From a virus (lineage: Duplodnaviria > Heunggongvirae > Uroviricota > Caudoviricetes), in IMG/VR virus record IMGVR_UViG_2563366977_000001, positions 1-64,000 of that record: a stretch of 64,000 nucleotides of DNA; one strand, written 5' to 3'. Positions 27,560-39,889 of the stretch are shown here, piece after piece. The position numbers were made by a program, and so were the translations under genes. The number at the start of each line of letters is the position of its first letter. Position 1 is the first letter of the stretch. The notes beneath the pieces were generated by a model. The model ran no database searches. It saw nothing but the letters and a program-made list of their open reading frames with translations, and was not told the DNA's origin.

Positions 27560-28536
27560 TGGTTGGGTACTCCTAATATCATTCGTGTTGTATAGCCGAT
27601 CCGGTCTTCAAAATGGGCTACGTTTTTCACCAGCAGCTTACGAGGCAACGATTCGTCCAGCTTATTTTCCTGGTCGTAACGATACACGAGGATCTCAATA
27701 ACCATTCCCGGCGTGATGTCGGGATTACCCGCGACCTCAATATCCATTTTGGGTACGAGCGACAATTGCATATTGCGCAGAGTTTCCATATCCGGATCGG
27801 ATATATAGCGTATTGGAAGTGAGCTATCGCCATATTCGACATAGCCTTCAGTCATTGAATAGCCGGTAAATCGATACTGAGTATTTGCCGTAACGGCATA
27901 CTCTTGCTGTATAAGCCTCATTTTTGAAATCGTGTATTCCGCCCTGGGGTTGTTCCCTTCATAGGTGAATGATGGTTTGGCTTTCATAAGGTCAGCTAAT
28001 GTATAAAAGTTAAACTGACCACGGCAGGCCCAGCATAAAGCGCCTTTGTCGCGGGCCATTTCAGATAGCATTTTGGAGGGTTTTTCCCCGGCGGAAAGAT
28101 GGTACGTACAGCTTCGTTTCAATGCGCTGGAGGCGATTTTCAGTGTACCGGTATACGTCTTGAAGATGGTATCAGGCGTTTTATTTGTATGCAGGTTAGC
28201 CCGTAGAGCGGGGATCTTAAATATCCGAACGTCTTCACTGACTGCAATGACCGTAATGACATCACCAGCCAGCACCGCAGATGTTACGAAAAAAGTTGTT
28301 TTAAACGTACCTGAATTGCCTTGTGGATCACCCATCTCTGCAACCAGTGCTGCGCCGTATTTTGTTTTCCAGTCATCAATTATGGTGCCGGTAATGTCGT
28401 GAATTTCCAGTTTCAGCAATGGTGCACGCAGGTTTGCCTTTTCCACATATACGGCAGTGAATATCCACTCCCTGGGCACTTTGTTTCCGTTGATGGTAAT
28501 GGACTGTAGAAAGTATTGCTGTAGCTCCTGGGACAT
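27556..28536 (-). CDS. tail/baseplate protein
   Basis: Track ORF, 326 aa, adjacent to the gpV-like gene with a 4-nt overlap. Confidence 0.3.
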   Translation of the reverse strand: MSQELQQYFLQSITINGNKVPREWIFTAVYVEKANLRAPLLKLEIHDITGTIIDDWKTKYGAALVAEMGDPQGNSGTFKTTFFVTSAVLAGDVITVIAVSEDVRIFKIPALRANLHTNKTPDTIFKTYTGTLKIASSALKRSCTYHLSAGEKPSKMLSEMARDKGALCWACRGQFNFYTLADLMKAKPSFTYEGNNPRAEYTISKMRLIQQEYAVTANTQYRFTGYSMTEGYVEYGDSSLPIRYISDPDMETLRNMQLSLVPKMDIEVAGNPDITPGMVIEILVYRYDQENKLDESLPRKLLVKNVAHFEDRIGYTTRMILGVPNQ

Positions 28537-28539
28537 GGC

Positions 28540-29307
28540 TTACCCCATTCTCAGAGAGGTTTCAGTAATAATTCGTTTCGCGTCCAGCTCCCAGGCGGTG
28601 ATCACGTCTGCTATAACACTAATTGCCGTTTGTGCAGCATAAATACGCTCTTCCCCAATTGGGGCTGAAACATCAGTAAAACTGATGTCTTTAGCATCCT
28701 GAATCGCGCAGATTAGCGGGACGGGTACTCGTACCAGCGGGGTTGTTGCTTCAAACTGCGTTCCTGCCATCAAGCGAAGACGTGCTCCTAGCGAATTACA
28801 CATCAGACTCATGGTCGCCTTATCCGTCGCCATTAACGTAACGTCATACGTCAGATTTGCCTGGGTGTATTCCAGGGCTACTAAAGGCATACCGCTGCCA
28901 GGTTCGCAGAAGTGATCACAGCTTTTGCGGTCTATCTGCTGGTCATTGTTGATATAGCTGATATCCATTGAGCGCGAGATATTAATCAGAGGGAGCGCAT
29001 CGCGATTAATGTTCGGATTCTCTGGCTTTCTCCCTTGCCCGGCATTAGCACGGCGAACCGCTTTAAGGAACTCGACCGCGTTATCAAAACGGGCAACATA
29101 AACACGCTCCGCTGGTGGGCGACTCAGGAATGATGCAAAGCGCCTTTCTTCTTTTGCTGGTTCCACCAGCGTTACGTCAGAAAAAATGTCGCTGATTAGC
29201 GTAGCAAAAGCGTTATCCACTCTTTCCAGACCAGTTGTCTGGAATTTTCCGGTACGCGTTGTCTGCCACTCGCCAATGCGGGACAGGAGAGTTTTGTTGG
29301 GTGTCAT
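28540..29307 (-). CDS. tail/baseplate protein
   Basis: Track ORF, 255 aa. Confidence 0.3.
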   Translation of the reverse strand: MTPNKTLLSRIGEWQTTRTGKFQTTGLERVDNAFATLISDIFSDVTLVEPAKEERRFASFLSRPPAERVYVARFDNAVEFLKAVRRANAGQGRKPENPNINRDALPLINISRSMDISYINNDQQIDRKSCDHFCEPGSGMPLVALEYTQANLTYDVTLMATDKATMSLMCNSLGARLRLMAGTQFEATTPLVRVPVPLICAIQDAKDISFTDVSAPIGEERIYAAQTAISVIADVITAWELDAKRIITETSLRMG

Positions 29308-30107
29308 TCGATCACTCCGTTTTGAGTGGTATCAAAGTTCCTGGCCGGGATGCAGTAATACAGGGAGCCGACGTGTTGTGTTCCGTAGCTGAAGATTCGA
29401 TGCACGTACCACCAGCGGCGGGCGAGGCCATTCGCCATTTCTTCGTTCCATTCCAGGATTGAACCAACAGGTACGTTGTTTGCAGCAATACGCAGGATTA
29501 GCACTTCATCAGCAAGACCATCCTGTTCTCCATCGGCATCAATGGCATGAAACGAATCCCTTCCGTCCGGGTTATCCAGGACGTATACGATTTCCGGTTC
29601 CAGATAGGTAAGCTCACGCTGGTTGTTGTCCAGTTGCGTGAAAGACTCTTCACCTGTTTCATCGTTTACGACGCCATAGGTGCCATCAGCCGGGCGGTAT
29701 AAAAGCGCCTCGAACGCGTCAGGGCTTGATTCAATAATGAGCATCCAATCGGCGCGGATCTGGTCGTTGAACGCTTTATGTCCGTTATATCGGGTTTTAA
29801 GCTGCTGGTTTGGTTCTCTGTTAGCGAGCGATGCCGGTAGGGGAGCGATGTCAGGTTCAATCACTTCCGTAACAGAGTCACCAGCATTATCAGGCCAATT
29901 ATCATGGCTATTAGATTGGGTGGCGGCGTGCTCTTCCAGAATACTGAATGGCCCTGCACTGACATTCCCATTTTCCGTTGTGCTTCCTTCATTCGCTTCA
30001 ACCGTCGTTGTCTCTTCTCTCTGCGTGCTGTCATGTTCTGTTCCCTTTCTCATCAGGCTTGCATCATCAGCAAGCCATTCATCAAAACGGCCCATAAGCG
30101 TCCTCAA
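29304..30107 (-). CDS. tail/baseplate protein
   Basis: Track ORF, 267 aa, with an acidic N-terminal region. Confidence 0.3.
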   Translation of the reverse strand: MRTLMGRFDEWLADDASLMRKGTEHDSTQREETTTVEANEGSTTENGNVSAGPFSILEEHAATQSNSHDNWPDNAGDSVTEVIEPDIAPLPASLANREPNQQLKTRYNGHKAFNDQIRADWMLIIESSPDAFEALLYRPADGTYGVVNDETGEESFTQLDNNQRELTYLEPEIVYVLDNPDGRDSFHAIDADGEQDGLADEVLILRIAANNVPVGSILEWNEEMANGLARRWWYVHRIFSYGTQHVGSLYYCIPARNFDTTQNGVIE

Positions 30108-30258
30108 AGGTCGATTTATCAGGTATCGAAAGGAAGATTTTCGGGAGATTGTGATTTTGGATGGAGGAGGGGAATTGTTGCAATATGCACTTGCGCACGG
30201 TGCAACGGTGCGCTATCATTATGACATTCATTAATAATCATGGAGGATAAGATGATCG

Positions 30259-30561
30259 ATGAGCAAAAAGATTAACATAAAGAATTTCAGGGATGAGTGG
30301 CTTGATGATTTTTTTGAATTTTCAATACCACACAAAAAGATACCTTCTGATATTCAGATTACATTGTTGCGGAAGCTGGATATTATCAATGCTGCAACTA
30401 CTTGGAAGGACTTGAGATCACCACCAGGTAATCGGTATGAGGAATTGTCAGGGAAGCTAAACGGCTATTCATCAATAAGGGTGAATAAGCAATACAGGTT
30501 AATTTTTAAGTGGGTTAACGGAAAGGCCGAGGACTTGTATCTCGACCCTCACAAATACTAA
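30259..30561 (+). CDS. higB: HigB-family toxin (RelE/ParE superfamily, plasmid maintenance killer)
   Basis: 100 aa, pattern ...DLRSPPGNRYEELSG...SIRVNKQYRLIFKW...LDPHKY, followed by a VapI-type HigA gene. Confidence 0.65.
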   Translation: MSKKINIKNFRDEWLDDFFEFSIPHKKIPSDIQITLLRKLDIINAATTWKDLRSPPGNRYEELSGKLNGYSSIRVNKQYRLIFKWVNGKAEDLYLDPHKY

Positions 30562-30632
30562 AACAAATACCCGGCGGATGGGCCGGGTACTGACCAGAGT
30601 CCACTTAATACGCACGCTAGTAAGGGCAAAAA

Positions 30633-30971
30633 ATGAAACAGGCAACCAGAAAACCGACGACTGTAGGTGATATCCTGCTGTACGAATACCTGGAGCCGTT
30701 AGAGCTTAAGATCAACGAGTTAGCAGAAATACTTCATGTTCATCGTAACACCGTAAGTGCTCTTGTTAATAATAATCGTAAGCTAACGATGGATATGGCA
30801 TATCGCCTGGCAAAAGCATTCGATACTTCTGTAGATTTTTGGATTAATCTTCAGACCGCAGTAGACCTGTGGGAAGTCGAAAATGATATGCGCGTTCAGG
30901 AAGAGTTAAGTCGTATCAATACTGCTGAAAAATTTATTTCTCAGCGGAACCTGAATAAAAAAGCAGCCTGA
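30633..30971 (+). CDS. higA: HigA antitoxin (XRE helix-turn-helix, VapI-type)
   Basis: VGDILLYEYLEPLELKINELAEILHVHRNTVSALVNN...AYRLAKAFDTSVDFWINLQ, the characteristic HigA HTH. Confidence 0.7.
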   Translation: MKQATRKPTTVGDILLYEYLEPLELKINELAEILHVHRNTVSALVNNNRKLTMDMAYRLAKAFDTSVDFWINLQTAVDLWEVENDMRVQEELSRINTAEKFISQRNLNKKAA

Positions 30972-30987
30972 TATAGTAAAACACATA

Positions 30988-31018
30988 CAAAAAGCCCACT
31001 TAACAAGTGGGCTTTCCT
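30988..31018 (+). terminator. rho-independent terminator
   Basis: aaagcccacttaacaagtgggctttcctttgg. Confidence 0.55.
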
Positions 31019-31388
31019 TTGGAATTAATGAACATTAAACCTATCCGTACAGAACAAGATTATGAGGCCGCACTGCGTGAAGTCGAACCGATGTTCGATA
31101 ACGAACCGGAAATGAATACCCCGGAAGGTGATTTCTTTGAGGTCATGTGTCTTCTCATTGAGGAGTACGAGAAAAAACATTATTCCAATTGAGCCACCAT
31201 CACCTATTGAAGCCATTAAGTTCCGTATGGAACAGCAAGGGCTGACCGTGAAGGATCTGGAACCGGCTATTGGTAAATCAAATCGTGTTTACGAGGTGCT
31301 AAATGGGACACGAAATTTGACGTTACCTATGATTCGCCGTTTACATTCCCAGTTTGGCATTCCTCTTGAAAGCCTAGTTGGTGTTTAA
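31007..31388 (+). pseudogene. HigA-family antitoxin-like HTH protein interrupted by a +1 frameshift
   Basis: Two track ORFs (31007..31192 and 31128..31388) join into one family-typical protein (...EEYEKKHY|PIEPPSPIEAIKFRMEQQGLT...) if one T is removed from cattattcc near 31180. Confidence 0.55.
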
Positions 31389-31449
31389 GTTTGGCGGTCT
31401 GGATGACCGCTTTTACCAAAAGTAAAGTTAAGAAGGTTTGATTGTTTAT

Positions 31450-32187
31450 ATGAGCAAAGATTCATCATTAGAAAATAAAGATGAAAATATCACTGTCAAG
31501 AATACAATCGAAGAAGCCATTAGAGACAAGTTATTTAATAAGTTGTTTGCATATGTTGTGGTTTCTTTTTTTGTCGTTAACTGGCAGGATATTTTCATTT
31601 TATTTAAATCAAAGTACGATATATATACGACATTATCTATAGTATGGGTAGGTGATGAGTATAATATCCCCTTTTTGCCATCATTCATTTTGCCACCATT
31701 TGTAGCTCATTTTGTCATGCCATTTATATATGGCACTGTTGCGTCTGTTATTATACCTTATGTTACGTTGTTTATATCGAAAGCCACAGGTAGAAATTAT
31801 GCAAGGATACGATATCTTGATTATGAATTTGATTTGAAAGAGAAAGCCAAAATAGAAGATTTAATGTTTGATCTGCGTAGCAAAGAAAGCGCCAGATTAG
31901 ATTTGGATGCAGCAATAGAGGAGAGAATAAAATCATTAAGTGCAATCGACTCTAAGAACAAAGAGCTTCTGGACGACAGAGTTGCTTTGTTCGAAGGCAT
32001 AAAAGCGATAGTGGATGTATATACAGAAAAAAATAAAAGAATCTCCTCGCCTGAAGATTTTGTTGATTTATTAAAGGCTGTGGAAAGAACTGATTTTTAT
32101 AAGGATATTGGTTTGTCTGGCATAAATGATTTAATAGCTGATTTAAAGAATACTTACGAAGACATACTTAAACCCATGTCCGACTAA
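31450..32187 (+). CDS. membrane protein of unknown function (AT-rich cargo gene)
   Basis: Start MSKDSS; two to three transmembrane segments (FAYVVVSFFVVNWQDIFILF; FILPPFVAHFVMPFIYGTVASVIIPYVTLFI) then a charged, probably coiled-coil C-terminal domain. No family recognised. Confidence 0.45.
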   Translation: MSKDSSLENKDENITVKNTIEEAIRDKLFNKLFAYVVVSFFVVNWQDIFILFKSKYDIYTTLSIVWVGDEYNIPFLPSFILPPFVAHFVMPFIYGTVASVIIPYVTLFISKATGRNYARIRYLDYEFDLKEKAKIEDLMFDLRSKESARLDLDAAIEERIKSLSAIDSKNKELLDDRVALFEGIKAIVDVYTEKNKRISSPEDFVDLLKAVERTDFYKDIGLSGINDLIADLKNTYEDILKPMSD

Positions 32188-32280
32188 CGCTTAAAAGGCG
32201 GATTTTCCGCCTTGCTTTGATGACTTTGATGTAAAACATTTTTTCAGCTATTTGAACACCATGATGGTGTTATTCGTGAT

Positions 32281-32760
32281 TTGTCATTTCTTGATGCTCA
32301 TCAGGCTGTGTTTGTTCAGCAACAAGAAGGAAAGCAACCGATAGAGTATCGCTTTTGGGTTACGTACTCTTTTCACTGCTTCACAAAAGACTATGCACAC
32401 CAGACTGAGGAAGAGAAACTGGCGTTAATGTACCACGCCCCTAAAGAGTCTCGTCCATTTTGTGAGCGTCGCTATAATCTTGCCAAACTTCACTTAAAAG
32501 AGGCAATTCTGTCATTGTCGGAAGGTAAGGTGATCCATGCCGGATACGGAAGCTATGCCGTTATTGAGGTAAATATTGGGGAGGGTAACAAGGAGTATTA
32601 TTTTGTTGCGTTTAAGGCTTTCAGGGAAAAGAAAAAGTTGCGGTTACACATCACTAGCGCCTACCCGGTATCAGAAAAACCAAATGGCAGGTCAGTGAAG
32701 TTTTTCGCAATCGCATACAATCTGTTAAGGAACAAACCGCTTCCTAAGCCACCAAAATAA
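32281..32760 (+). CDS. hypothetical soluble protein (AT-rich cargo gene)
   Basis: 159 aa, no recognisable motif; co-oriented with the membrane gene and followed by a terminator. Confidence 0.4.
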   Translation: MSFLDAHQAVFVQQQEGKQPIEYRFWVTYSFHCFTKDYAHQTEEEKLALMYHAPKESRPFCERRYNLAKLHLKEAILSLSEGKVIHAGYGSYAVIEVNIGEGNKEYYFVAFKAFREKKKLRLHITSAYPVSEKPNGRSVKFFAIAYNLLRNKPLPKPPK

Positions 32761-32761
32761 C

Positions 32762-32785
32762 AAAGCCCACCTTAAGGTGGGCTTC
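32762..32785 (+). terminator. terminator hairpin
   Basis: aaagcccaccttaaggtgggctt. Confidence 0.5.
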
Positions 32786-32985
32786 GCCAGAAATTATTTT
32801 CTGGTATTCAGAACGCCATTACCGGACTTTGCCTTGACCAAGTATCACAACAGGCTTGACCTGTTATGATAGCTGGTTGCGGGATGTCTGAATTTCTTCA
32901 GTCTGCTGCATCCTCGAAGGTTTGGTTCAACATGTACCATTCCTTCACCGTCATAATAGTGAACTATTCACGTCCTTACAAACAC

Positions 32986-34191
32986 TTATACATTTTTTAC
33001 GTTGTTCTTCACATACGCCATGAACATCTTTTCGGCTTGTGCTGGTGGTGTTCCTGCCATAACAAGCGCGTCAATGAACGCCTGCTTCTTCAGTGCGAAC
33101 TGGTCAGCAAGACGTTGCTGAAGTTCCTTGTTTTTCTGCTTCTCCCGTTGCAAAGCAGCTTCTTTTGCCGCTGCCCGTTTTTTCTGTGCGTCGGATAACT
33201 TTCTGGCCCTCGTCAGTTGGTCGCGCAGCTTGTCGATCTTACCGTTGTCCTTTGCCAGTTTTGAGCTTAAAGCGGCCTGGCGTTTCTGATAGAGCTTCCA
33301 TTCACGTTTAGCTGCCTCAACATTCGTTTTGCTGCTACGGTTTCGATTGAACGCCTTCTCGTCTTCTTTTGTGAAGTGTTTTGTCGTGCGGCGGCGATCG
33401 TCACCAAAGGCAACTTGCGTTGCAGCTTTTTGCAGGGCGCGAGCAATACTCATCTGCCAACTGGCAGACTGTAGTCGTGTCATTGAGTGGATCACATGTT
33501 TACAGGCGACGCCTTGCAGCTTAGGGTTGCGAACTTTTGGATAGGCGTATTCTTTTGGCGGGGCCAGGGCAAAGTTACCCGCAGTGGCGATGTAGCGATA
33601 CCAGTATTGATGGCGACCGCAGTCACAATCGAAAGACACTCGCCCGGCACACAGTGATTTTGTGACTTTCAGGGCTGATTTATCGTCTTCTGCGATGTCA
33701 TCGACCATCTGATCCCATTCTTCAAAACGTACCCGGACAATGTGGTGCTGGTGAACGGATATATCGGACGCTTCCACGCGGATATTAATCACATTGTGAC
33801 GAAGAGATACGGGCGTAGCTCTTTTGATACCAGAACCGTCGTCTACGGCGTTATTTGCTCGCTTAATATCGATAGCCTGGCTGGACGCTACCAGTTGTGC
33901 GTATGTAATGCCAGCCGTCTTGCTGTCGTATTTTTCGCGTGCTTTGCTTCGCAGCTTTTCGAAGCCTTTCAGATCGTCACGCGTAAAGAACGTGCCGCCT
34001 TTCTTTTTCCCCAGCTTAAGAATGTCTTCGGCTGATTTATTCCTAAGCCTGCCCGGCGTGAGTGTCCTGTGCGCCTGGCGGCGTTTGCGGTTTTGCTCTT
34101 TCCTGATGAGTTCAAATACGCGTGTGAAATCCTTAGAGGACAGGCCGTCAGTGATATATCGCCCGTCCTGATTTTTCAGGAAGTCAGGCAT
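32986..34191 (-). CDS. basic protein with SWIM-like zinc-finger motif and coiled-coil C-terminus
   Basis: 401 aa; FDCDCGRHQYWYRYIATAGNFALAPP...VACKHVIH gives a CxC...CxH arrangement; K/R/Q-rich C-terminal third. Confidence 0.4.
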   Translation of the reverse strand: MPDFLKNQDGRYITDGLSSKDFTRVFELIRKEQNRKRRQAHRTLTPGRLRNKSAEDILKLGKKKGGTFFTRDDLKGFEKLRSKAREKYDSKTAGITYAQLVASSQAIDIKRANNAVDDGSGIKRATPVSLRHNVINIRVEASDISVHQHHIVRVRFEEWDQMVDDIAEDDKSALKVTKSLCAGRVSFDCDCGRHQYWYRYIATAGNFALAPPKEYAYPKVRNPKLQGVACKHVIHSMTRLQSASWQMSIARALQKAATQVAFGDDRRRTTKHFTKEDEKAFNRNRSSKTNVEAAKREWKLYQKRQAALSSKLAKDNGKIDKLRDQLTRARKLSDAQKKRAAAKEAALQREKQKNKELQQRLADQFALKKQAFIDALVMAGTPPAQAEKMFMAYVKNNVKNV

Positions 34192-34513
34192 TTTCTATCT
34201 CCGGTGCCGAGCCAGCGTAATCGCGAATCTTGTTTCTTAGCCATGCTGCGTCAGGAAGAGTTAACGTTGTCCCTACCGGCATTTCTTCCATTTCTGACTC
34301 ATGGCCCACCAGCACGCGAAATACCCAGCGCAAATCAGCGTTGCCATAGGCGCGATAGGCCGCCAGGTCTGAGCGATAAACCTCATCAATTTTTATCGTG
34401 TACTGGAAATTATCGGAGTGATACTCCGATACCCGCTTGATCATCTCCTGATGGAATAGTGCGCGCAGCACATCGTCTTCAATGCATCGATCGTCGAGCC
34501 TGCTGTAACTCAT
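34184..34513 (-). CDS. hypothetical protein
   Basis: 109 aa; 8-nt overlap with the start of the SWIM-like gene suggests translational coupling. Confidence 0.35.
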   Translation of the reverse strand: MSYSRLDDRCIEDDVLRALFHQEMIKRVSEYHSDNFQYTIKIDEVYRSDLAAYRAYGNADLRWVFRVLVGHESEMEEMPVGTTLTLPDAAWLRNKIRDYAGSAPEIENA

Positions 34514-34605
34514 AACAGTTCCTCACAGTCATAACCTGGGGGGAACTGTATGCAGGGTGTGAAATGCGAGAAAGCAGCGTCACCTTGCCTGGTGACGCTG
34601 TGAAA

Positions 34606-34887
34606 TTATGCGTGTGAAAATAATGGACGGATGTTTGGGCGAGCGGTTTGCGAAGCAACCCAAAGCTCATACTGGGATTGCATACCGGTCCACATTTCGG
34701 CACTGGTTCCAAGAGCGGACTCCAGACGAAGTGCCATATCAGCGGAAATACCTGTTTTTTCGTTCAAAATTCGGGAAAGTGCCGTGCGAGTAATGCCTAA
34801 TGCAGCAGCGGTGTCTGTGACTGATATGTCTCCCAAATATTCACGAAGAACCGCGCCTGGATGCGCGGGATTATGCATACGACTCAT
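34606..34887 (-). CDS. HigA-type antitoxin-like XRE HTH protein (VapI-type), orphan
   Basis: [18 protein letters not shown]...[38 protein letters not shown]. Confidence 0.6.
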
Positions 34888-35183
34888 ATGTGGAAAGCAA
34901 CCCGTTTACCGGTTGGCAATTCAACGTCCAGACTCAACTTCCCACCCATAGCCTCAACGTAACGTTTAAGCGTTGCCACTTTCAAGTCATTGCCTCGTTG
35001 TTCAAGTTTTGTGATGGCTGGTTGACTAATTCCCATCGCATCGGCAACTGTTTTTTGTGATAACTGAAGCTCCTCTCTCAACATCTGCAATCCGACTTCC
35101 AGAATCATTTCATCAGCCTGCTCTTTGATACGAGCTTGGCTTTCAGGGGATTGCGCAGCAATAACTTCTCTTAGAGTTCTCAT
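34884..35183 (-). CDS. XRE-family antitoxin (HigA2-like) paired with the Gp49-like toxin
   Basis: 99 aa HTH protein ([43 protein letters not shown]) overlapping the toxin gene end. Confidence 0.55.
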
Positions 35184-35530
35184 TATTTTTTCTCAAGTTC
35201 TGCAAGATGGTTGGAAAATTCGTCGTCTGCAATCCGTATCATTCTTTCGTAGAACTTTTTATCGTTACTTTTATCTCCGGCGCACAGGATTATGGCTTGC
35301 CTTACCGGATCAAATGCGAAGAATGCTCTGATAGGGCGACCAGCGTACTGAATCCGTAACTCCTTCATGTTTTTATGGCGTGAGCCTTTAACTGTGTCGG
35401 CATATGGCCTTGATAATGAAGGGCCATATGTTTCCAGATTGATCAGGTCAACCAGGATTTTTTCTTTTAATGCAGGTTCCTGTTCCTGGAACCATTCATC
35501 AAAAATTTTTCCAAAATAAATTTGCCACAT
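35183..35530 (-). CDS. RelE/ParE-superfamily toxin, phage Gp49-like (HigB2-like)
   Basis: 115 aa; I recognise the pattern of Gp49-like addiction-module killers; first gene behind a perfect palindromic operator. Confidence 0.55.
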   Translation of the reverse strand: MWQIYFGKIFDEWFQEQEPALKEKILVDLINLETYGPSLSRPYADTVKGSRHKNMKELRIQYAGRPIRAFFAFDPVRQAIILCAGDKSNDKKFYERMIRIADDEFSNHLAELEKK

Positions 35531-35551
35531 AGTTATTCAAAATCCTTTTTA

Positions 35552-35603
35552 ATAAACTACATGTTATAAACTACAGGTTATAGCATATAACCTGTAGTTT
35601 ATA
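35552..35603. promoter_or_regulatory. operator: 17-bp-arm perfect palindrome plus one extra direct half-site, upstream of the toxin-antitoxin operon
   Basis: ataaactaca tgtt ATAAACTACAGGTTATA gca TATAACCTGTAGTTTAT. Confidence 0.55.
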
Positions 35604-35635
35604 TTTTCAAGACCGTTTTTTATTCGATTTAGCAT

Positions 35636-36289
35636 TTAAAGTATCACGGTATCCTCATCAACTTCTGTCCCTGCCAGTGACTTTGGCTGGGAGGCGGCTG
35701 CTTTAACCTTCTCATGCCCAATAATGGACAGGAACGAGGCCATTATCCCTGCTTTGTTTTCTTTCTCTACCGATCCAGTCATTTGCTTCAGGTAATCCGC
35801 GCTGGCAACATTGTGGTATACCGTTGCATAGCAGCACAGAATCATCAGGATGTGCTCTGGTCGGATATCTTGCCAGTTAACTCGATAAACCTCTTCACCG
35901 TTGCCGTTGTATTCGGTATCGACGATAGAGTCGGGGATCTCGAATGCCCCTTTGTTCTTGTCAGGCAGGGATAGCAGCCTTTGTAGTTTCAGCTCTCGGT
36001 ATCTCTCCATGCCGACAATGATCGCCGCTCTGCCGTCGGCGTGCCGTGTTTTTAATGTTACCTGGCTGGCACCTGTACCGGCTGAAATGGTTGGCGTGAT
36101 TTCGTCAACCAGCACCTTAAATTCACTTTTACGCAGCTCGGCAATTGCTGGTGGAATTTTTCGTTTTTGTTCAATAGCAGATGCTGGGAGGGGCTTTACT
36201 TTGTCAATTACAAGCGCACCGTCTTTCAGGACTGCCGTAGCCATCAGCGGCTTGTTAGTCGAAAGGCTGAATATTGCGATCTTTTGCAT
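35636..36289 (-). CDS. hypothetical protein
   Basis: Track ORF, 217 aa. Confidence 0.3.
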   Translation of the reverse strand: MQKIAIFSLSTNKPLMATAVLKDGALVIDKVKPLPASAIEQKRKIPPAIAELRKSEFKVLVDEITPTISAGTGASQVTLKTRHADGRAAIIVGMERYRELKLQRLLSLPDKNKGAFEIPDSIVDTEYNGNGEEVYRVNWQDIRPEHILMILCCYATVYHNVASADYLKQMTGSVEKENKAGIMASFLSIIGHEKVKAAASQPKSLAGTEVDEDTVIL

Positions 36290-36554
36290 GGCTTTTACTC
36301 CACGATAGCAGGCACAAAAAAAGGCCGCACATGGCGGCCTGCTTTGGCGTTATGACTCCCTACCGCGCATCGGCTGAAAGTTAGTCGTCAAAAGAACCTT
36401 CAACGGGAGCCGTTTGCGCAATGGATTTTGTCCAGATTGTGATTTCCAGAATAGTGTCAACAATTTTTTTGAATTTTTTATTCGCGCTGAATTTGGCCTA
36501 AGTCATTTTGGCGTAGATGTTTGCTTTTGTAACATAAAACTTCAGTTTGTTTAC

Positions 36555-37184
36555 ATGAAGGATGGTTTTGTGAAGTTAAGGGTTTTGGGAGCAGTGCTCG
36601 CGGTTATATTGGGGGGAGTTTCTCTTAATGCTGCCTATGCAGGCGCGTTACCTGCAAAGTATGAGGCTGGGCTGAAGGTGTTGCGAAACGCCAAAACAAA
36701 CTATACGCCTGATGAAGTTTCAAACTATTGCCAGAAAGAAAATATCCCGCTGAAACCTGTAGAGCCATTCTTTAAAAGCAACATTGAGTTCTGTGTATTT
36801 GCATATGCAGCAGATGAAACAGGCAAAGCCATACAAAAGACAGGGTATTCCACCAAAGACACAATGTCGGTGTTAAGTAACGGCGTGTTGCAGTTTGAGC
36901 TTTATCGTCAGCAAGGAATGGGAGATCTATTGCAGCCTTTGTATATGCTGGCTTGGGTGCCTGAAGGGCAGCAGTTTCTTATCCGGAAAGGGATGCTTCG
37001 GCAAAGTGATGTGGCAGGATTCAATAACATGATGGAACTTGAACGAGCCGCGAAGCAAAAACAAGCACCTAAGCAACCTACAGCGGAATGCATTCGTAGT
37101 GAGATCCAAAAGATATTAAGTGAGCAGCCTTACATTGATCGTGGGGTAGCCGAAGTCGCTGCAAAAATGAAATGTACTAATTAA
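36555..37184 (+). CDS. secreted protein of unknown function
   Basis: Start at MKDGFVKLRVLGAVLAVILGGVSLNAAYA (classic signal peptide); track ORF starts earlier at 36414. Confidence 0.45.
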   Translation: MKDGFVKLRVLGAVLAVILGGVSLNAAYAGALPAKYEAGLKVLRNAKTNYTPDEVSNYCQKENIPLKPVEPFFKSNIEFCVFAYAADETGKAIQKTGYSTKDTMSVLSNGVLQFELYRQQGMGDLLQPLYMLAWVPEGQQFLIRKGMLRQSDVAGFNNMMELERAAKQKQAPKQPTAECIRSEIQKILSEQPYIDRGVAEVAAKMKCTN

Positions 37185-37227
37185 AGTCAAATAGAATAAC
37201 AAAATGGTAACATCTGGAGTTTGTGAA

Positions 37228-38049
37228 ATGTTTTTAAAGAAATGCGGAAACATATTTTGTTCAACAGCGTTTACTGCTGTTATTGCTCTTTCGGTTCCCA
37301 GCATATCTTTTGCTGAAGATTTTAGCAAAATTGACTGTAACGCCACAAAAACAAGGCAGATGTTGATCGATGATTATAACGAACTTTTAAAAGATGAACC
37401 GGAAAAAGTAACAGTAATTGATGCTTACGATCAGGTTAATGAAATAAGCGAAAAAAATAAACTCCAATGCTTGGGAACGTATGAGTTCTCTGATGGAAGC
37501 ACGCTTAGAGTTAGGTATAATTTATACCTAAACAGCCTAGGTACACCTATATATAAATTTGTCCCAGTTGAGGATTTAACGCAATATGACGTAAGCGCAT
37601 CTATTCATAATGCTCCTGCAACCATTACGAGTGCGCCTGAAAATAATGGAAAAACATACGCCTGTAAGGTCGCTGTAACCTACAATGGAAAACGCTCTAA
37701 CTACATGGGGGATTCTGGTACATGGGATCGTGTGATTACTGATTATGGATCTTACTTCTCATGGGATTTGCCACGCGGAAACAGAGGTAACAGCACTGGG
37801 CAGGATGCTTTTAGTGGTATAGACGAATCAAAGCCTGTATTAGAAAATCAGTTGGTGAGAAAGGAAGTCGAAAAAGATGGTAGTGTGGTTGATGAGTTCA
37901 GGACTGAAGTAAGCTATGGTGAGAGACAATCAGCACATAAGTTTGTATATGCCCGTAGAATAAAACCTACAGGGACGAGAGAATATTATGTCACAGATCT
38001 GACTGATAAACGGGCATTTATGTTTCTGAATTGTCAGCAAGATTCGTAG
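37228..38049 (+). CDS. secreted protein of unknown function
   Basis: Start at MFLKKCGNIFCSTAFTAVIALSVPSISFA (signal peptide) with GGAG upstream; AT-rich gene. Confidence 0.45.
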   Translation: MFLKKCGNIFCSTAFTAVIALSVPSISFAEDFSKIDCNATKTRQMLIDDYNELLKDEPEKVTVIDAYDQVNEISEKNKLQCLGTYEFSDGSTLRVRYNLYLNSLGTPIYKFVPVEDLTQYDVSASIHNAPATITSAPENNGKTYACKVAVTYNGKRSNYMGDSGTWDRVITDYGSYFSWDLPRGNRGNSTGQDAFSGIDESKPVLENQLVRKEVEKDGSVVDEFRTEVSYGERQSAHKFVYARRIKPTGTREYYVTDLTDKRAFMFLNCQQDS

Positions 38050-38088
38050 TTGATATAGCAGGCTTAAAGATTAAGCCTGCTATTTGTT

Positions 38089-38439
38089 TTACTCGGTAAT
38101 TGTTTTACAGTTGTTTTTATTTAAGGCCAACCCAAGTTTACTTGAGGCCAACTCATTTTCGGTGTGAGTGCCAGCAAACACAAAGCCTTGTTTTATCTTG
38201 TTTATGGTGAAATATTTGTTGTACATGAAAGCCCAAATAAAAGAGGCGATCCAGGGGCCAATTCCGGCAGTGAGGAATGCCAGTATCAGCATCACCACGA
38301 ACACCCCAATGAAGGTTATAAAGTCTTTCCTGAACAAAGCAGGAAAAGCACCAAACAAGAATGTAGTCCAAGAAAAACCATAAAAACCGGTTATTGACTC
38401 GCCAGTTTGAGGATTTTCAAGTTTAATTTTAGTAGCCAA
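38089..38439 (-). CDS. small inner-membrane protein
   Basis: 116 aa with two to three hydrophobic helices. Confidence 0.35.
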   Translation of the reverse strand: MATKIKLENPQTGESITGFYGFSWTTFLFGAFPALFRKDFITFIGVFVVMLILAFLTAGIGPWIASFIWAFMYNKYFTINKIKQGFVFAGTHTENELASSKLGLALNKNNCKTITE

Positions 38440-38570
38440 AACTATTCATCCTTTAACATAAAAAACAAATACTTATAAAGCTGTGTGAGTCCGCAATACT
38501 ACTAATTTACACTTTGTAATGCAATGAGTTGATGTATGTCTTGTGACGCTGTTATTCATATCTGTAGGAG

Positions 38571-38909
38571 TTAAGATTTTTCGGTAATGGTGATTTCATC
38601 TCCTAGCCGATAACGGCGGGGAACGGAATTCTCCATCAGGTCGCGAATTGCTCCCGCCTCACGCAGTTCCTCTGTCTCCCAGTATCTGTTTGTCACCAGG
38701 TCAAGGCTGGCAATGACTTTATGCCGGTCATTCGGCATGGCTTCTTTTTCAGCCATTATCATCAGTGAGAACTCTTCATCCAGTAGAATTTGATACCAGA
38801 CTTTTGACAGTTCCAACTCTCTAATGAGGGTGAAGCGCCGCTCAATTGTGGCGGAAGAATAAGTGAAATCAATTTTTTTCGTGGCATACATTTTGCTGTG
38901 TCCGGTCAC
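38571..38909 (-). CDS. hypothetical protein
   Basis: Track ORF, 112 aa, downstream of the antirepressor gene. Confidence 0.3.
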   Translation of the reverse strand: MTGHSKMYATKKIDFTYSSATIERRFTLIRELELSKVWYQILLDEEFSLMIMAEKEAMPNDRHKVIASLDLVTNRYWETEELREAGAIRDLMENSVPRRYRLGDEITITEKS

Positions 38910-38947
38910 TTAGTAGTTAAAGCCCCGGCATGACCGGGGCAAATCTA

Positions 38948-39889
38948 TTAACTAACAATCCAGTCGGTCGCTGCTACATCTTCTGGCTGTAAATCAATCG
39001 CATAGATCTTGCCGTCGCGAATGGTGCGCCAGTTTTTCCGTGAGCCTCTTTCGGGCCATACCCAGACACTTTCAGGCCAGGATGCTCGACGGCATACGGT
39101 TGCATACCCTGTTTTAATCTTCTCTCTGGCGGTATGCAACGACAGGTTTGCCTTTGGACTTTCAGGCACAGGATGGTGAATGGCCTGAAATAGCCCCATC
39201 TTGGGATGATACCAGCGTTTGTTGCGTGGTTCTGCCTCCGACATAACCTGCTTAAAGGCTTTCCGGAAGGGGGCCAGGGCCACAATGGAGCGCCGCGCAA
39301 GCAAACCGTCGGGAGTTAAAAACTCATGCGTATCAGTGGGTATCCGGTAAGCGTTGACCAGGTTACGGCATTTGGCTTCAGTCAGGCCACATTTCGCCGC
39401 CAACTGGCGGTAGCCAATGTAGCCTTCCGGAATATTACCTTTCTTGATCTGCTCGACGGTTTCAGCGACTTTGGACACTTGTGCCGATACTTCGGCTACC
39501 TGGGCATTAACGGCGTTGATCCGGCGTTCATGCTCAAGATGCATTTGCGCCATTTCAGCCAGAATTTCGGCTTTTGATTTTAACTGTACCCGGGCATTCT
39601 CCAGTTCGCGCCAGCGGTCCACCAGCCGGGCGGTGAATTCGGGAGAGAGCTGCGCGACGACGACAATACTATCGCGCTTGCCTTGCTCGCCTTCGAAGAC
39701 ATAGACCGGATCTTTGACAACCTTCCCTAAGTTATTGATTCTTTCGACGAACTCATTTTGAGTTTCTCGGATGACACCGCTAGCCATCATATTGCGAATG
39801 GTACGTAAAACATTGCCGTGACGACTACCAACTAACTCTGCAATATCTAGGCTACTCATTGTCGCTTTTTGAGAGATGGACAGATTCAT
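38948..39889 (-). CDS. ant: phage antirepressor (Rha/Ant family)
   Basis: N-terminal MSSLDIAELVGSRHGNVLRTIRNM (Rha-type regulatory domain) plus C-terminal domain; start overlaps the upstream small ORF, as icd-ant does in P1. Confidence 0.55.
   Translation of the reverse strand: MNLSISQKATMSSLDIAELVGSRHGNVLRTIRNMMASGVIRETQNEFVERINNLGKVVKDPVYVFEGEQGKRDSIVVVAQLSPEFTARLVDRWRELENARVQLKSKAEILAEMAQMHLEHERRINAVNAQVAEVSAQVSKVAETVEQIKKGNIPEGYIGYRQLAAKCGLTEAKCRNLVNAYRIPTDTHEFLTPDGLLARRSIVALAPFRKAFKQVMSEAEPRNKRWYHPKMGLFQAIHHPVPESPKANLSLHTAREKIKTGYATVCRRASWPESVWVWPERGSRKNWRTIRDGKIYAIDLQPEDVAATDWIVS

Follow-up and report, generated by a model that had tools for sequence, protein, structure and literature searches.

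Two orphan HigA antitoxin genes of a D6-like phage-plasmid as probable relics of toxin-antitoxin turnover

RESULTS

Two toxin-antitoxin modules are each followed by an extra antitoxin gene

We analyzed a 64,000-nucleotide stretch of a Caudoviricetes genome (IMG/VR record IMGVR_UViG_2563366977_000001, positions 1 to 64,000; here called the window), in which two HigA-type antitoxin genes each follow a complete toxin-antitoxin (TA) module. By its gene content, compared with phage D6 and with Escherichia coli plasmids of ~90 kb, the window belongs to a D6-like, P1-related phage-plasmid; contig KE138679.1 of assembly GCA_000408325.1 is 100% identical to it over the two loci that were compared (together 28028-39530). 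As annotated in D6 and in the ~90-kb plasmids, homologues of P1 genes 7, 24, 6, and 5 lie on one side, and those of genes 25, 26, and mat lie on the other. Island 1 is flanked by two minus-strand genes, the homologues of gene 7 (29304-30107) and gene 25 (32986-34191), and harbors a PF05015 HigB, a TIGR02607 HigA, and a split K-12-type HigA gene. Island 2, located between the gene-26 homologue and mat, harbors a Gp49 toxin, an XRE antitoxin, and a further TIGR02607 HigA, all encoded on the minus strand, the stop codon of one gene overlapping the start codon of the next. Both islands are accessory-gene hot spots of the D6-like phage-plasmid. A preliminary description of this DNA had reported a HigB/HigA module with a frameshifted extra HigA gene at 30259-31388 and a second HigA gene at 34606-34887 behind the second module, and Pfam and NCBIfam searches recovered all of these genes at those positions. 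The two extra genes are referred to below as relic A (31028-31388, plus strand) and relic B (34606-34887, minus strand), in keeping with the explanation that we favor, with a probability of about 0.6: both are relics of TA turnover, left behind when their toxins were replaced by complete new pairs.

In module 1, the toxin gene lies upstream of the antitoxin gene. The toxin gene, higB (30259-30561, plus strand), encodes a 100-aa RelE-like protein of family PF05015 (E=1.2e-34, 119 bits against a cutoff of 27), annotated in relatives as a RelE/ParE toxin, and higA (30633-30971, plus strand) encodes the cognate 112-aa antitoxin of family TIGR02607 (102.5 bits against a cutoff of 47.7). Module 1 is thus a predicted HigB(PF05015)/HigA(TIGR02607) type II TA system of the Rts1 (Proteus vulgaris)-type HigBA family. 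Upstream of higB, an inverted repeat at 30193-30213 (GCGCACGGT/ACGGTGCGC) is the likely candidate operator of the module, and a comparable sequence precedes the related higBA on a phage-plasmid of Salmonella. A terminator scan detected a terminator-like hairpin with a 13-bp stem at 30989-31017, directly before relic A; related cassettes likewise terminate in a GC-rich hairpin followed by a T-run. The PF05015 higBA relatives stand alone as two genes on a P1-like plasmid of Salmonella and on small plasmids of Klebsiella, and a trailing K-12-type HigA gene is absent from all of these.

Module 2 consists of a 115-aa Gp49/PF05973 toxin of the RelE/ParE family (35183-35530, minus strand; Pfam E=1.3e-21; PHROG 3445, "toxin") and a 99-aa XRE-family antitoxin, XRE99 (34884-35183, minus strand; Pfam HTH_3/HTH_37), which together form a predicted Gp49(PF05973)/XRE (HigB2-like) type II TA system. 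The region 35552-35610 (minus strand) combines a promoter-like site (35610-35582), an overlapping perfect palindrome with 18-nt arms (35565-35603), and a third half-site (35552-35569), and is likely the candidate operator of XRE99. The trailing gene, relic B, encodes an intact 93-aa TIGR02607 protein (HigA93; 96.6 bits in NCBIfam). The start codon of this gene and the stop codon of XRE99 overlap as ATGA, a configuration linked to translational coupling. Eighty loci were compared from other species, including members of Pantoea, Yersinia, Enterobacter, Photorhabdus, and Acinetobacter: in 79, a Gp49 partner adjoins XRE99 as a plain pair, and in none is there a HigA93-like gene within 2.5 kb. The two-gene architecture of both families elsewhere led us to reject the view that a third gene is a normal part of Gp49-XRE or PF05015-HigBA systems.

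Relic A is a frameshifted K-12-type HigA gene

The intact form of relic A is an uninterrupted 360-nt open reading frame (ORF) of 119 aa in D6 (orf72) and in the E. coli plasmids pCUVET19-1396.3 and p98205. Relatives of the protein at 75 to 92% identity, nearly all of 118 to 126 aa, are widespread in Enterobacterales. It is homologous to HigA/YgjM of E. coli K-12 (PDB 5ifg_B, E=4e-8 over residues 6 to 112 by phmmer), and a Foldseek search with an AlphaFold model of the intact homologue returned 6kml_B (E=1.3e-5), 6kmq_B, 6jq4, and 5ycl, with E values of ~1e-5 and 32 to 33% identity over ~120 columns. The model (mean predicted local distance difference test [pLDDT] score of 91.6) shows an N-terminal two-helix hairpin (residues 9 to 22 and 32 to 51), a non-helical linker (residues 52 to 58, YPIEPPS), and a five-helix helix-turn-helix (HTH) domain (residues 59 to 117).

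Aligning the window with the intact homologues, as the preliminary description had proposed, placed the lesion at 31183-31184 (plus strand), where TT stands in place of a single C at codon 53. Intact relatives read CATTA-CCCAATT at this site (CATTACCCAATT), and the window reads CATTATTCCAATT. A frameshift had been reported near 31180 as a possible slip in a short homopolymer; the gene is indeed split, but the change is from C to TT and alters no homopolymer length. The N-terminal ORF (31028-31192, plus strand) comprises 52 native residues followed by SN and a stop codon, 54 aa in all, and corresponds by alignment to the two-helix N-terminal domain of K-12-type HigA. The C-terminal HTH domain (31185-31388, plus strand; residues 53 to 119 of the intact protein) retains a Pfam HTH_3 match and is out of frame with the N-terminal ORF. 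Accordingly, tblastn with the intact antitoxin gave two matches, 31028-31183 and 31146-31385, flanking the lesion. The start of the gene is ATG 31028, as annotated in relatives, rather than the GTG at 31007 assumed earlier. Besides the frameshift, the window copy differs from the paired copies described below by one substitution.

Whether the frameshift reflects a sequencing error or genuine decay had been left undecided. In a public assembly collection, 74 blocks have the exact 54-aa product in their index, and the CATTATTCCAATT allele is present in all nine further contigs that were examined, which derive from NCBI isolate assemblies, ENA metagenome assemblies, and Logan read assemblies. These contigs diverge from the window by 0.03 to 1.2% in the surrounding DNA and have two distinct downstream structures. 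The allele is not found among 5,426 complete E. coli genomes, in which the best match is 97% identical. Because the identical allele recurs in independent assemblies and in two structural contexts, and because the lesion is a C-to-TT change, a sequencing error is excluded; the frameshift is real and inherited, and the reading as decay holds.

We also considered how a longer product might still be made. A +1 slip at AAT-TGA-G, with the in-frame TGA at 31190-31192, would restore the downstream frame. However, no Shine-Dalgarno-like stimulator was seen at the right spacing, and, as far as the sequence can be read, a slip of tRNA-Asn from AAU to AUU would re-pair poorly in the P site, with a central mismatch; programmed frameshifting was therefore judged unlikely. 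Translation of the HTH half from the GTG at 31128 was likewise judged unlikely, as the sole purine-rich stretch abuts the GTG. In paired copies, the GGAG Shine-Dalgarno sequence of the 119-aa gene resides in the last codons of the toxin gene; the window has TTTGGAATTA instead. Having lost both its native promoter region and this Shine-Dalgarno sequence, relic A sits behind the cassette hairpin at 30989-31017, and we consider it a pseudogene in the window.

Sibling plasmids carry the lost toxin of relic A at the same site

Both extra antitoxin genes had been described as lacking a cognate toxin. This stands for the window: a K-12-type (PF09907) HigB is neither adjacent to relic A nor detectable anywhere in the 64 kb (tblastn, E<=1), and the same search did not find the 93-aa HigB that partners relic B elsewhere. 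It does not stand for the sibling plasmids, in which both cognate toxins are present.

Among 95 complete E. coli plasmids bearing the 119-aa gene, 19 have a 100-aa toxin gene directly upstream of it, separated by a 3-nt gap, and the same pair is found in five of eight D6-like loci, which were fetched via the Gp49 toxin. This toxin belongs to PF09907 (E=3e-34) and is a homologue of K-12 HigB (5ifg_A, E=1e-7). The orphan 119-aa protein of pCUVET19-1396.3 is 100% identical to antitoxins of paired loci. When the window is compared with a paired plasmid, homology is lost at 30157 and returns exactly at ATG 31028. Between these points, 390 nt of the sibling, comprising the promoter region, the toxin gene, and the 3-nt spacer, correspond to 870 nt in the window (30158-31027). 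These 870 nt constitute a complete PF05015 higB/TIGR02607 higA cassette that brings its own upstream region (30158-30258, plus strand), including the inverted repeat, and its own terminal hairpin.

Relic B matches a paired antitoxin of sibling plasmids

A similar exchange is apparent in island 2. In pEC361_3, pAPEC201603, and other D6-like plasmids, higA93 lies at the same position, 8 nt downstream of a gene for a 93-aa PF05015 HigB (HigB93), and the higA93 genes of pEC361_3 and of the window are 97% identical in nucleotide sequence. The HigB93-HigA93 pair also occurs on unrelated large plasmids. Homology with the window stops at the TATG of higA93, and window positions 34892-35635, a segment that includes Gp49, XRE99, and the promoter-like site and palindrome of module 2, stand in for the sibling's Shine-Dalgarno sequence, toxin gene, and 335-nt upstream region.

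Relic B is intact in all nine Gp49-XRE99-HigA93 tricistrons examined, the window included, and seven of the eight related ones encode a HigA93 with the exact sequence of the paired antitoxin in pEC361_3. The Gp49 toxin of these operons appears in the index of 491 blocks of the assembly collection; all eight loci read have the 93-aa gene. Of 124 places matched by higA93, nine are chromosomal and lay outside the examination, and the closest matches are plasmid-borne.

Relic A is decaying across the plasmid population

The 95 complete E. coli plasmids with the 119-aa gene include the 19 with the paired module and 25 with an intact orphan gene. About 50 others match only the first 183 nt. One such copy, upon inspection, has a deletion after codon 59 that leaves a 66-aa ORF and is flagged as a pseudogene in RefSeq, from which we infer the same C-terminal deletion in ~50 of the 95 plasmids. 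In one plasmid, an IS3 element interrupts the gene at approximately codon 35. The codon-53 frameshift of the window is a further, independent lesion, and relic A is therefore decaying across the population.

Pairwise ratios of nonsynonymous to synonymous substitution rates (dN/dS) for the 119-aa gene are low, 0 to 0.10 in every comparison. All four nonsynonymous differences are in orphan-context alleles, and two paired alleles differ at 21 synonymous and no nonsynonymous sites. Mosaic polymorphisms shared across contexts suggest recombination with paired alleles rather than selection, and because of such recombination dN/dS is uninformative about selection in the orphan state.

DISCUSSION

Toxin-for-cassette exchange as the probable origin of the orphan antitoxins

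The arrangements in sibling plasmids, the identity of their antitoxins with orphan copies, the breakpoints, and the self-contained incoming cassettes are all seen directly in the comparison. The history that we propose to connect them, and to which the probability of about 0.6 applies, is the following. Island 1 would formerly have carried a K-12-type higBA, with the PF09907 toxin and the 119-aa antitoxin, and island 2 a PF05015/TIGR02607 higBA, with the 93-aa toxin and the 93-aa antitoxin. In both cases, a complete, unrelated TA cassette with its own upstream region and candidate operator would have taken the place of the former promoter and toxin gene. Since the cassette would have joined at the start codon of the old antitoxin gene, that gene was retained. 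A recombinant that lost the antitoxin while the old toxin protein persisted would presumably die, which may explain why only toxin-side replacements are recovered. The order of events, with the old pair first and the cassette later, is suggested by the fact that both old pairs are canonical family architectures that also occur outside D6-like plasmids.

Several points weigh against this explanation. The direction of the swaps is drawn from family architecture and not from a rooted phylogeny of the plasmid backbones. The window HigA93 has two private substitutions, M21I and A26T, which might affect toxin binding. Moreover, the dN/dS of relic A is just 0 to 0.10 even between orphan copies, which could mean continued selection, although the mosaic polymorphisms point to recombination instead.

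As for present function, relic B is probably expressed and would still neutralize the 93-aa HigB of sibling plasmids at the same site. It would then protect a cell in which this plasmid displaces a HigB93-carrying sibling. A role in anti-addiction, or cross-immunity in plasmid competition, is therefore plausible for relic B, as distinct from a role against host defense. Cross-immunity had been one of the functions suggested at the outset, and it survives in this narrower sense, as plausible immunity of relic B to sibling-plasmid toxins. In a bolder version, D6-like phage-plasmids would undergo serial, precise TA succession, with antitoxins accumulating as an immunity "memory" and the 54-aa and 66-aa fragments of relic A acting as functional mini-antitoxins devoid of the HTH domain; we regard this as unlikely. 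If it were true, an element could displace its siblings without suffering their post-segregational killing and impose its own new addiction.

Alternative explanations

It is conceivable, if on balance improbable, that both relics are neutral hitchhikers with no present function, that their deletion brings no benefit, and that relic B has simply not yet been disabled. For relic A, much of the evidence points in this direction: it has been broken in three independent ways in the population, it has neither a promoter nor a Shine-Dalgarno sequence, and all nonsynonymous changes of the 119-aa gene fall in orphan-context alleles. For relic B, the two private amino acid changes of the window copy would also fit. 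However, neutrality accounts poorly for a relic B that is intact in every tricistron, nearly always identical to the paired antitoxin, and accompanied by a toxin as widely indexed as Gp49; the ATGA overlap with XRE99 argues in the same direction, as does the fact that 25 of the ~76 orphan copies of relic A are still full length. At the other extreme, the 54-aa and 66-aa fragments of relic A might themselves be under selection as domain-split antitoxins that would bind the K-12-type HigB of siblings without a DNA-binding domain. The two commonest lesions, the codon-53 frameshift and the deletion after codon 59, are both assigned to the 7-residue linker at residues 52 to 58, both alleles are widespread, and toxin interaction and dimerization have been assigned to the N-terminal part of the antitoxin in SehB and K-12 HigA (PMC7160566). 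Nevertheless, we consider this quite unlikely. The coincidence with the linker was noticed after the fact and concerns only three independent lesions, the third of which (IS3) cuts the N-terminal domain; the same study models the toxin contacts through helices alpha-3 to alpha-6, beyond the retained fragment; and relic A lies behind a hairpin with no promoter or strong Shine-Dalgarno sequence. That a full-length antitoxin is made after all, with the frameshift being either an artifact or bypassed, has a negligible probability in view of the independent assemblies and the nature of the lesion.

The preliminary description had raised another possible function, in which the orphan antitoxins are phage decoys that counter host-encoded TA defense during infection. 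Orphan antitoxins that act against host TA systems are known in phages, such as T4 Dmd and DarG-like enzymes (PMC11825919, PMC7354431), and in sister plasmids the pair to which relic A belongs resembles part of the anti-lambda system PD-lambda-2, matching component A and the N-terminal third of component B. Still, we find the decoy function very unlikely, since the exact cognate toxins reside on sibling phage-plasmids at the same loci, and no host-chromosomal one was identified, although protein-level searches of host genomes were not exhaustive. The 119-aa gene has 95 matches in E. coli, every one of them on a plasmid and none on a chromosome. Rather than diverged mimics of host antitoxins, the relics have orphan copies elsewhere that are identical to the paired antitoxins of siblings. 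Relic A in particular, at ~32 to 33% identity to K-12 HigA, is too distant for cross-neutralization to be expected; it has also lost its promoter and Shine-Dalgarno sequence, follows a hairpin, and is broken here and in most relatives. The likeness to PD-lambda-2 does not extend to membership, as set out below. Tripartite TA systems with a separate HTH regulator exist, for example, paaR-paaA-parE, and the overlap of relic B with the upstream stop codon within the operon would suit a third component that acts as a transcriptional regulator. This is less credible still, since the third HigA gene is found in none of the 80 Gp49-XRE loci of other species, the PF05015 module relatives are two-gene units, in siblings each relic is paired with a different, cognate toxin, and relic A is dispensable, being broken in most copies.

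Comparison with known systems

Orphan antitoxins have been described as remnants of degraded TA systems or as anti-addiction modules in a Klebsiella pneumoniae survey (PMC7192599) and in a review (PMC7354431), and an orphan hipB that adjoins a higA/relE pair has been reported on a plasmid (PMC11541004). The genes studied here resemble these cases in having no adjacent toxin, in sharing a non-toxin flank with an intact TA pair elsewhere, and in being carried by a mobile element next to a complete TA module. The same roles have been proposed as well, as a remnant, in anti-addiction, or against competing mobile elements. They differ in that sibling elements reveal the cognate toxins at the very same locus, in that the toxin and promoter have been replaced by an unrelated TA cassette at the antitoxin ATG instead of merely being lost, and in that two such loci occur on one phage-plasmid. 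What is new here is thus the identification of both lost toxins in siblings and the repeated toxin-for-cassette swap at the antitoxin start codon. The nature of orphan antitoxins as remnants or anti-addiction genes was already known, the D6 record lists orf72 as a second HigA, and RefSeq carries pseudogene flags on the truncated copies. The case is a tidy, testable example and not a new kind of system.

Relic A and the sister-plasmid toxin are sequence and fold homologues of K-12 HigB/HigA (YgjN/YgjM; PDB 5IFG, 6KML) and of Salmonella SehAB. They share the toxin-first gene order and a two-domain antitoxin with an N-terminal helical and a C-terminal HTH domain. In contrast to K-12 HigA, of 138 aa, the intact form of relic A has 119 aa, with the identity of ~32 to 33% already mentioned, and in the window the toxin is absent and the antitoxin frameshifted. 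Modules 1 and 2 themselves are typical of the Rts1-type HigBA and Gp49/XRE families and are atypical only in their trailing relic genes.

In PADLOC, the sister-plasmid toxin has a full-length match to PD-Lambda-2_A (E=3e-42; the pair is found, for example, at locus L009, 6571-7236), and relic A matches positions 1 to 119 of the 402-position PD-Lambda-2_B profile (E=2.8e-43). In PD-lambda-2, it is the B protein, a HigA-like HTH fused to a C-terminal peptidase domain, that is toxic, and defense also needs a third gene, C (Vassallo et al. 2022, PMC9519451). Unlike that system, the D6-like pair, whose antitoxin gene ends at residue 119, has neither the peptidase domain nor a C component; membership in PD-lambda-2 was therefore rejected, and the pair is regarded as a relative. 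PADLOC gave no match for the neighboring window proteins, and tblastn found no A-type toxin in the window. As a separate matter, the likeness suggests two possible histories: a peptidase domain was fused to such a pair to give PD-lambda-2, or the pair descends from PD-lambda-2 after loss of this domain.

Theory and precedent for antitoxin-only genotypes in plasmid competition are also available (Rankin et al. 2012, PMC3415908; PMC11541004; PMC7354431). This theory accommodates an element that has acquired a new addiction module and is still immune to an older toxin. The present case departs from the theoretical genotype in that relic A is evidently dispensable. More distant analogues are the engineered pCURE plasmids, which carry antitoxins in order to displace resident plasmids, and the displaced orphan toxin/immunity modules of contact-dependent inhibition (CDI) loci.

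The comparison turns the label "orphan antitoxin" into a concrete history, a toxin-for-module exchange at two sites of one phage-plasmid. It fits the long-standing idea that a TA pair can be safely lost toxin-first only, for which we did not meet an equally direct illustration in the papers that we read. Siblings with the paired module, with the swap and an intact relic, and with the swap and a broken relic together provide a natural test system for the theory of anti-addiction and plasmid competition. For annotation, 31028-31388 should read as a pseudogene of K-12-type HigA, and the HigA gene at 34606-34887 should be kept separate from the Gp49/XRE module.

Additional features of module 1 and of the islands

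A GC-rich hairpin with a 10-bp stem (30566-30591) is located within the operon, inside the 71-nt spacer between higB and higA of module 1, and could be a site of transcription attenuation or processing. In assembly GCA_045574545.1, the higB of module 1 (locus L015, 2232-2534, corresponding to window positions 30259-30561) has a 1-nt deletion in a run of seven T's, with predicted inactivation of the toxin; the same locus also bears the relic A frameshift. The newer module may have begun to decay toxin-first, or the homopolymer may have been misassembled.

Island 1 carries two further genes downstream of relic A. The ORF at 31450-32187 (plus strand; possible start at 31438) encodes a 245-aa homologue of D6 orf73 that belongs to PHROG 8191, a family whose function is not known (E=1.5e-107), and gave no match in Pfam or PADLOC searches. 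In sibling plasmids, this gene comes and goes independently of the TA genes and thus appears as variable cargo of the island. The ORF at 32281-32760 (plus strand) encodes a YjaZ-like "stationary phase growth adaptation protein" (NCBIfam NF007263, 290.7 bits, slightly below the cutoff of 324) and is the sole island 1 gene in some siblings (locus L014, pEC361_3). A query containing it matched thousands of E. coli genomes at 60 to 80% identity, and we take these matches to be the chromosomal yjaZ.

Finally, islands 1 and 2 assort independently among siblings. In loci L007-L014, the island 2 tricistron is accompanied in island 1 by the K-12-type pair, by the swapped module with an intact relic, by the swapped module with the frameshifted relic, or by YjaZ only. 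This independent assortment indicates frequent recombination between sibling plasmids.

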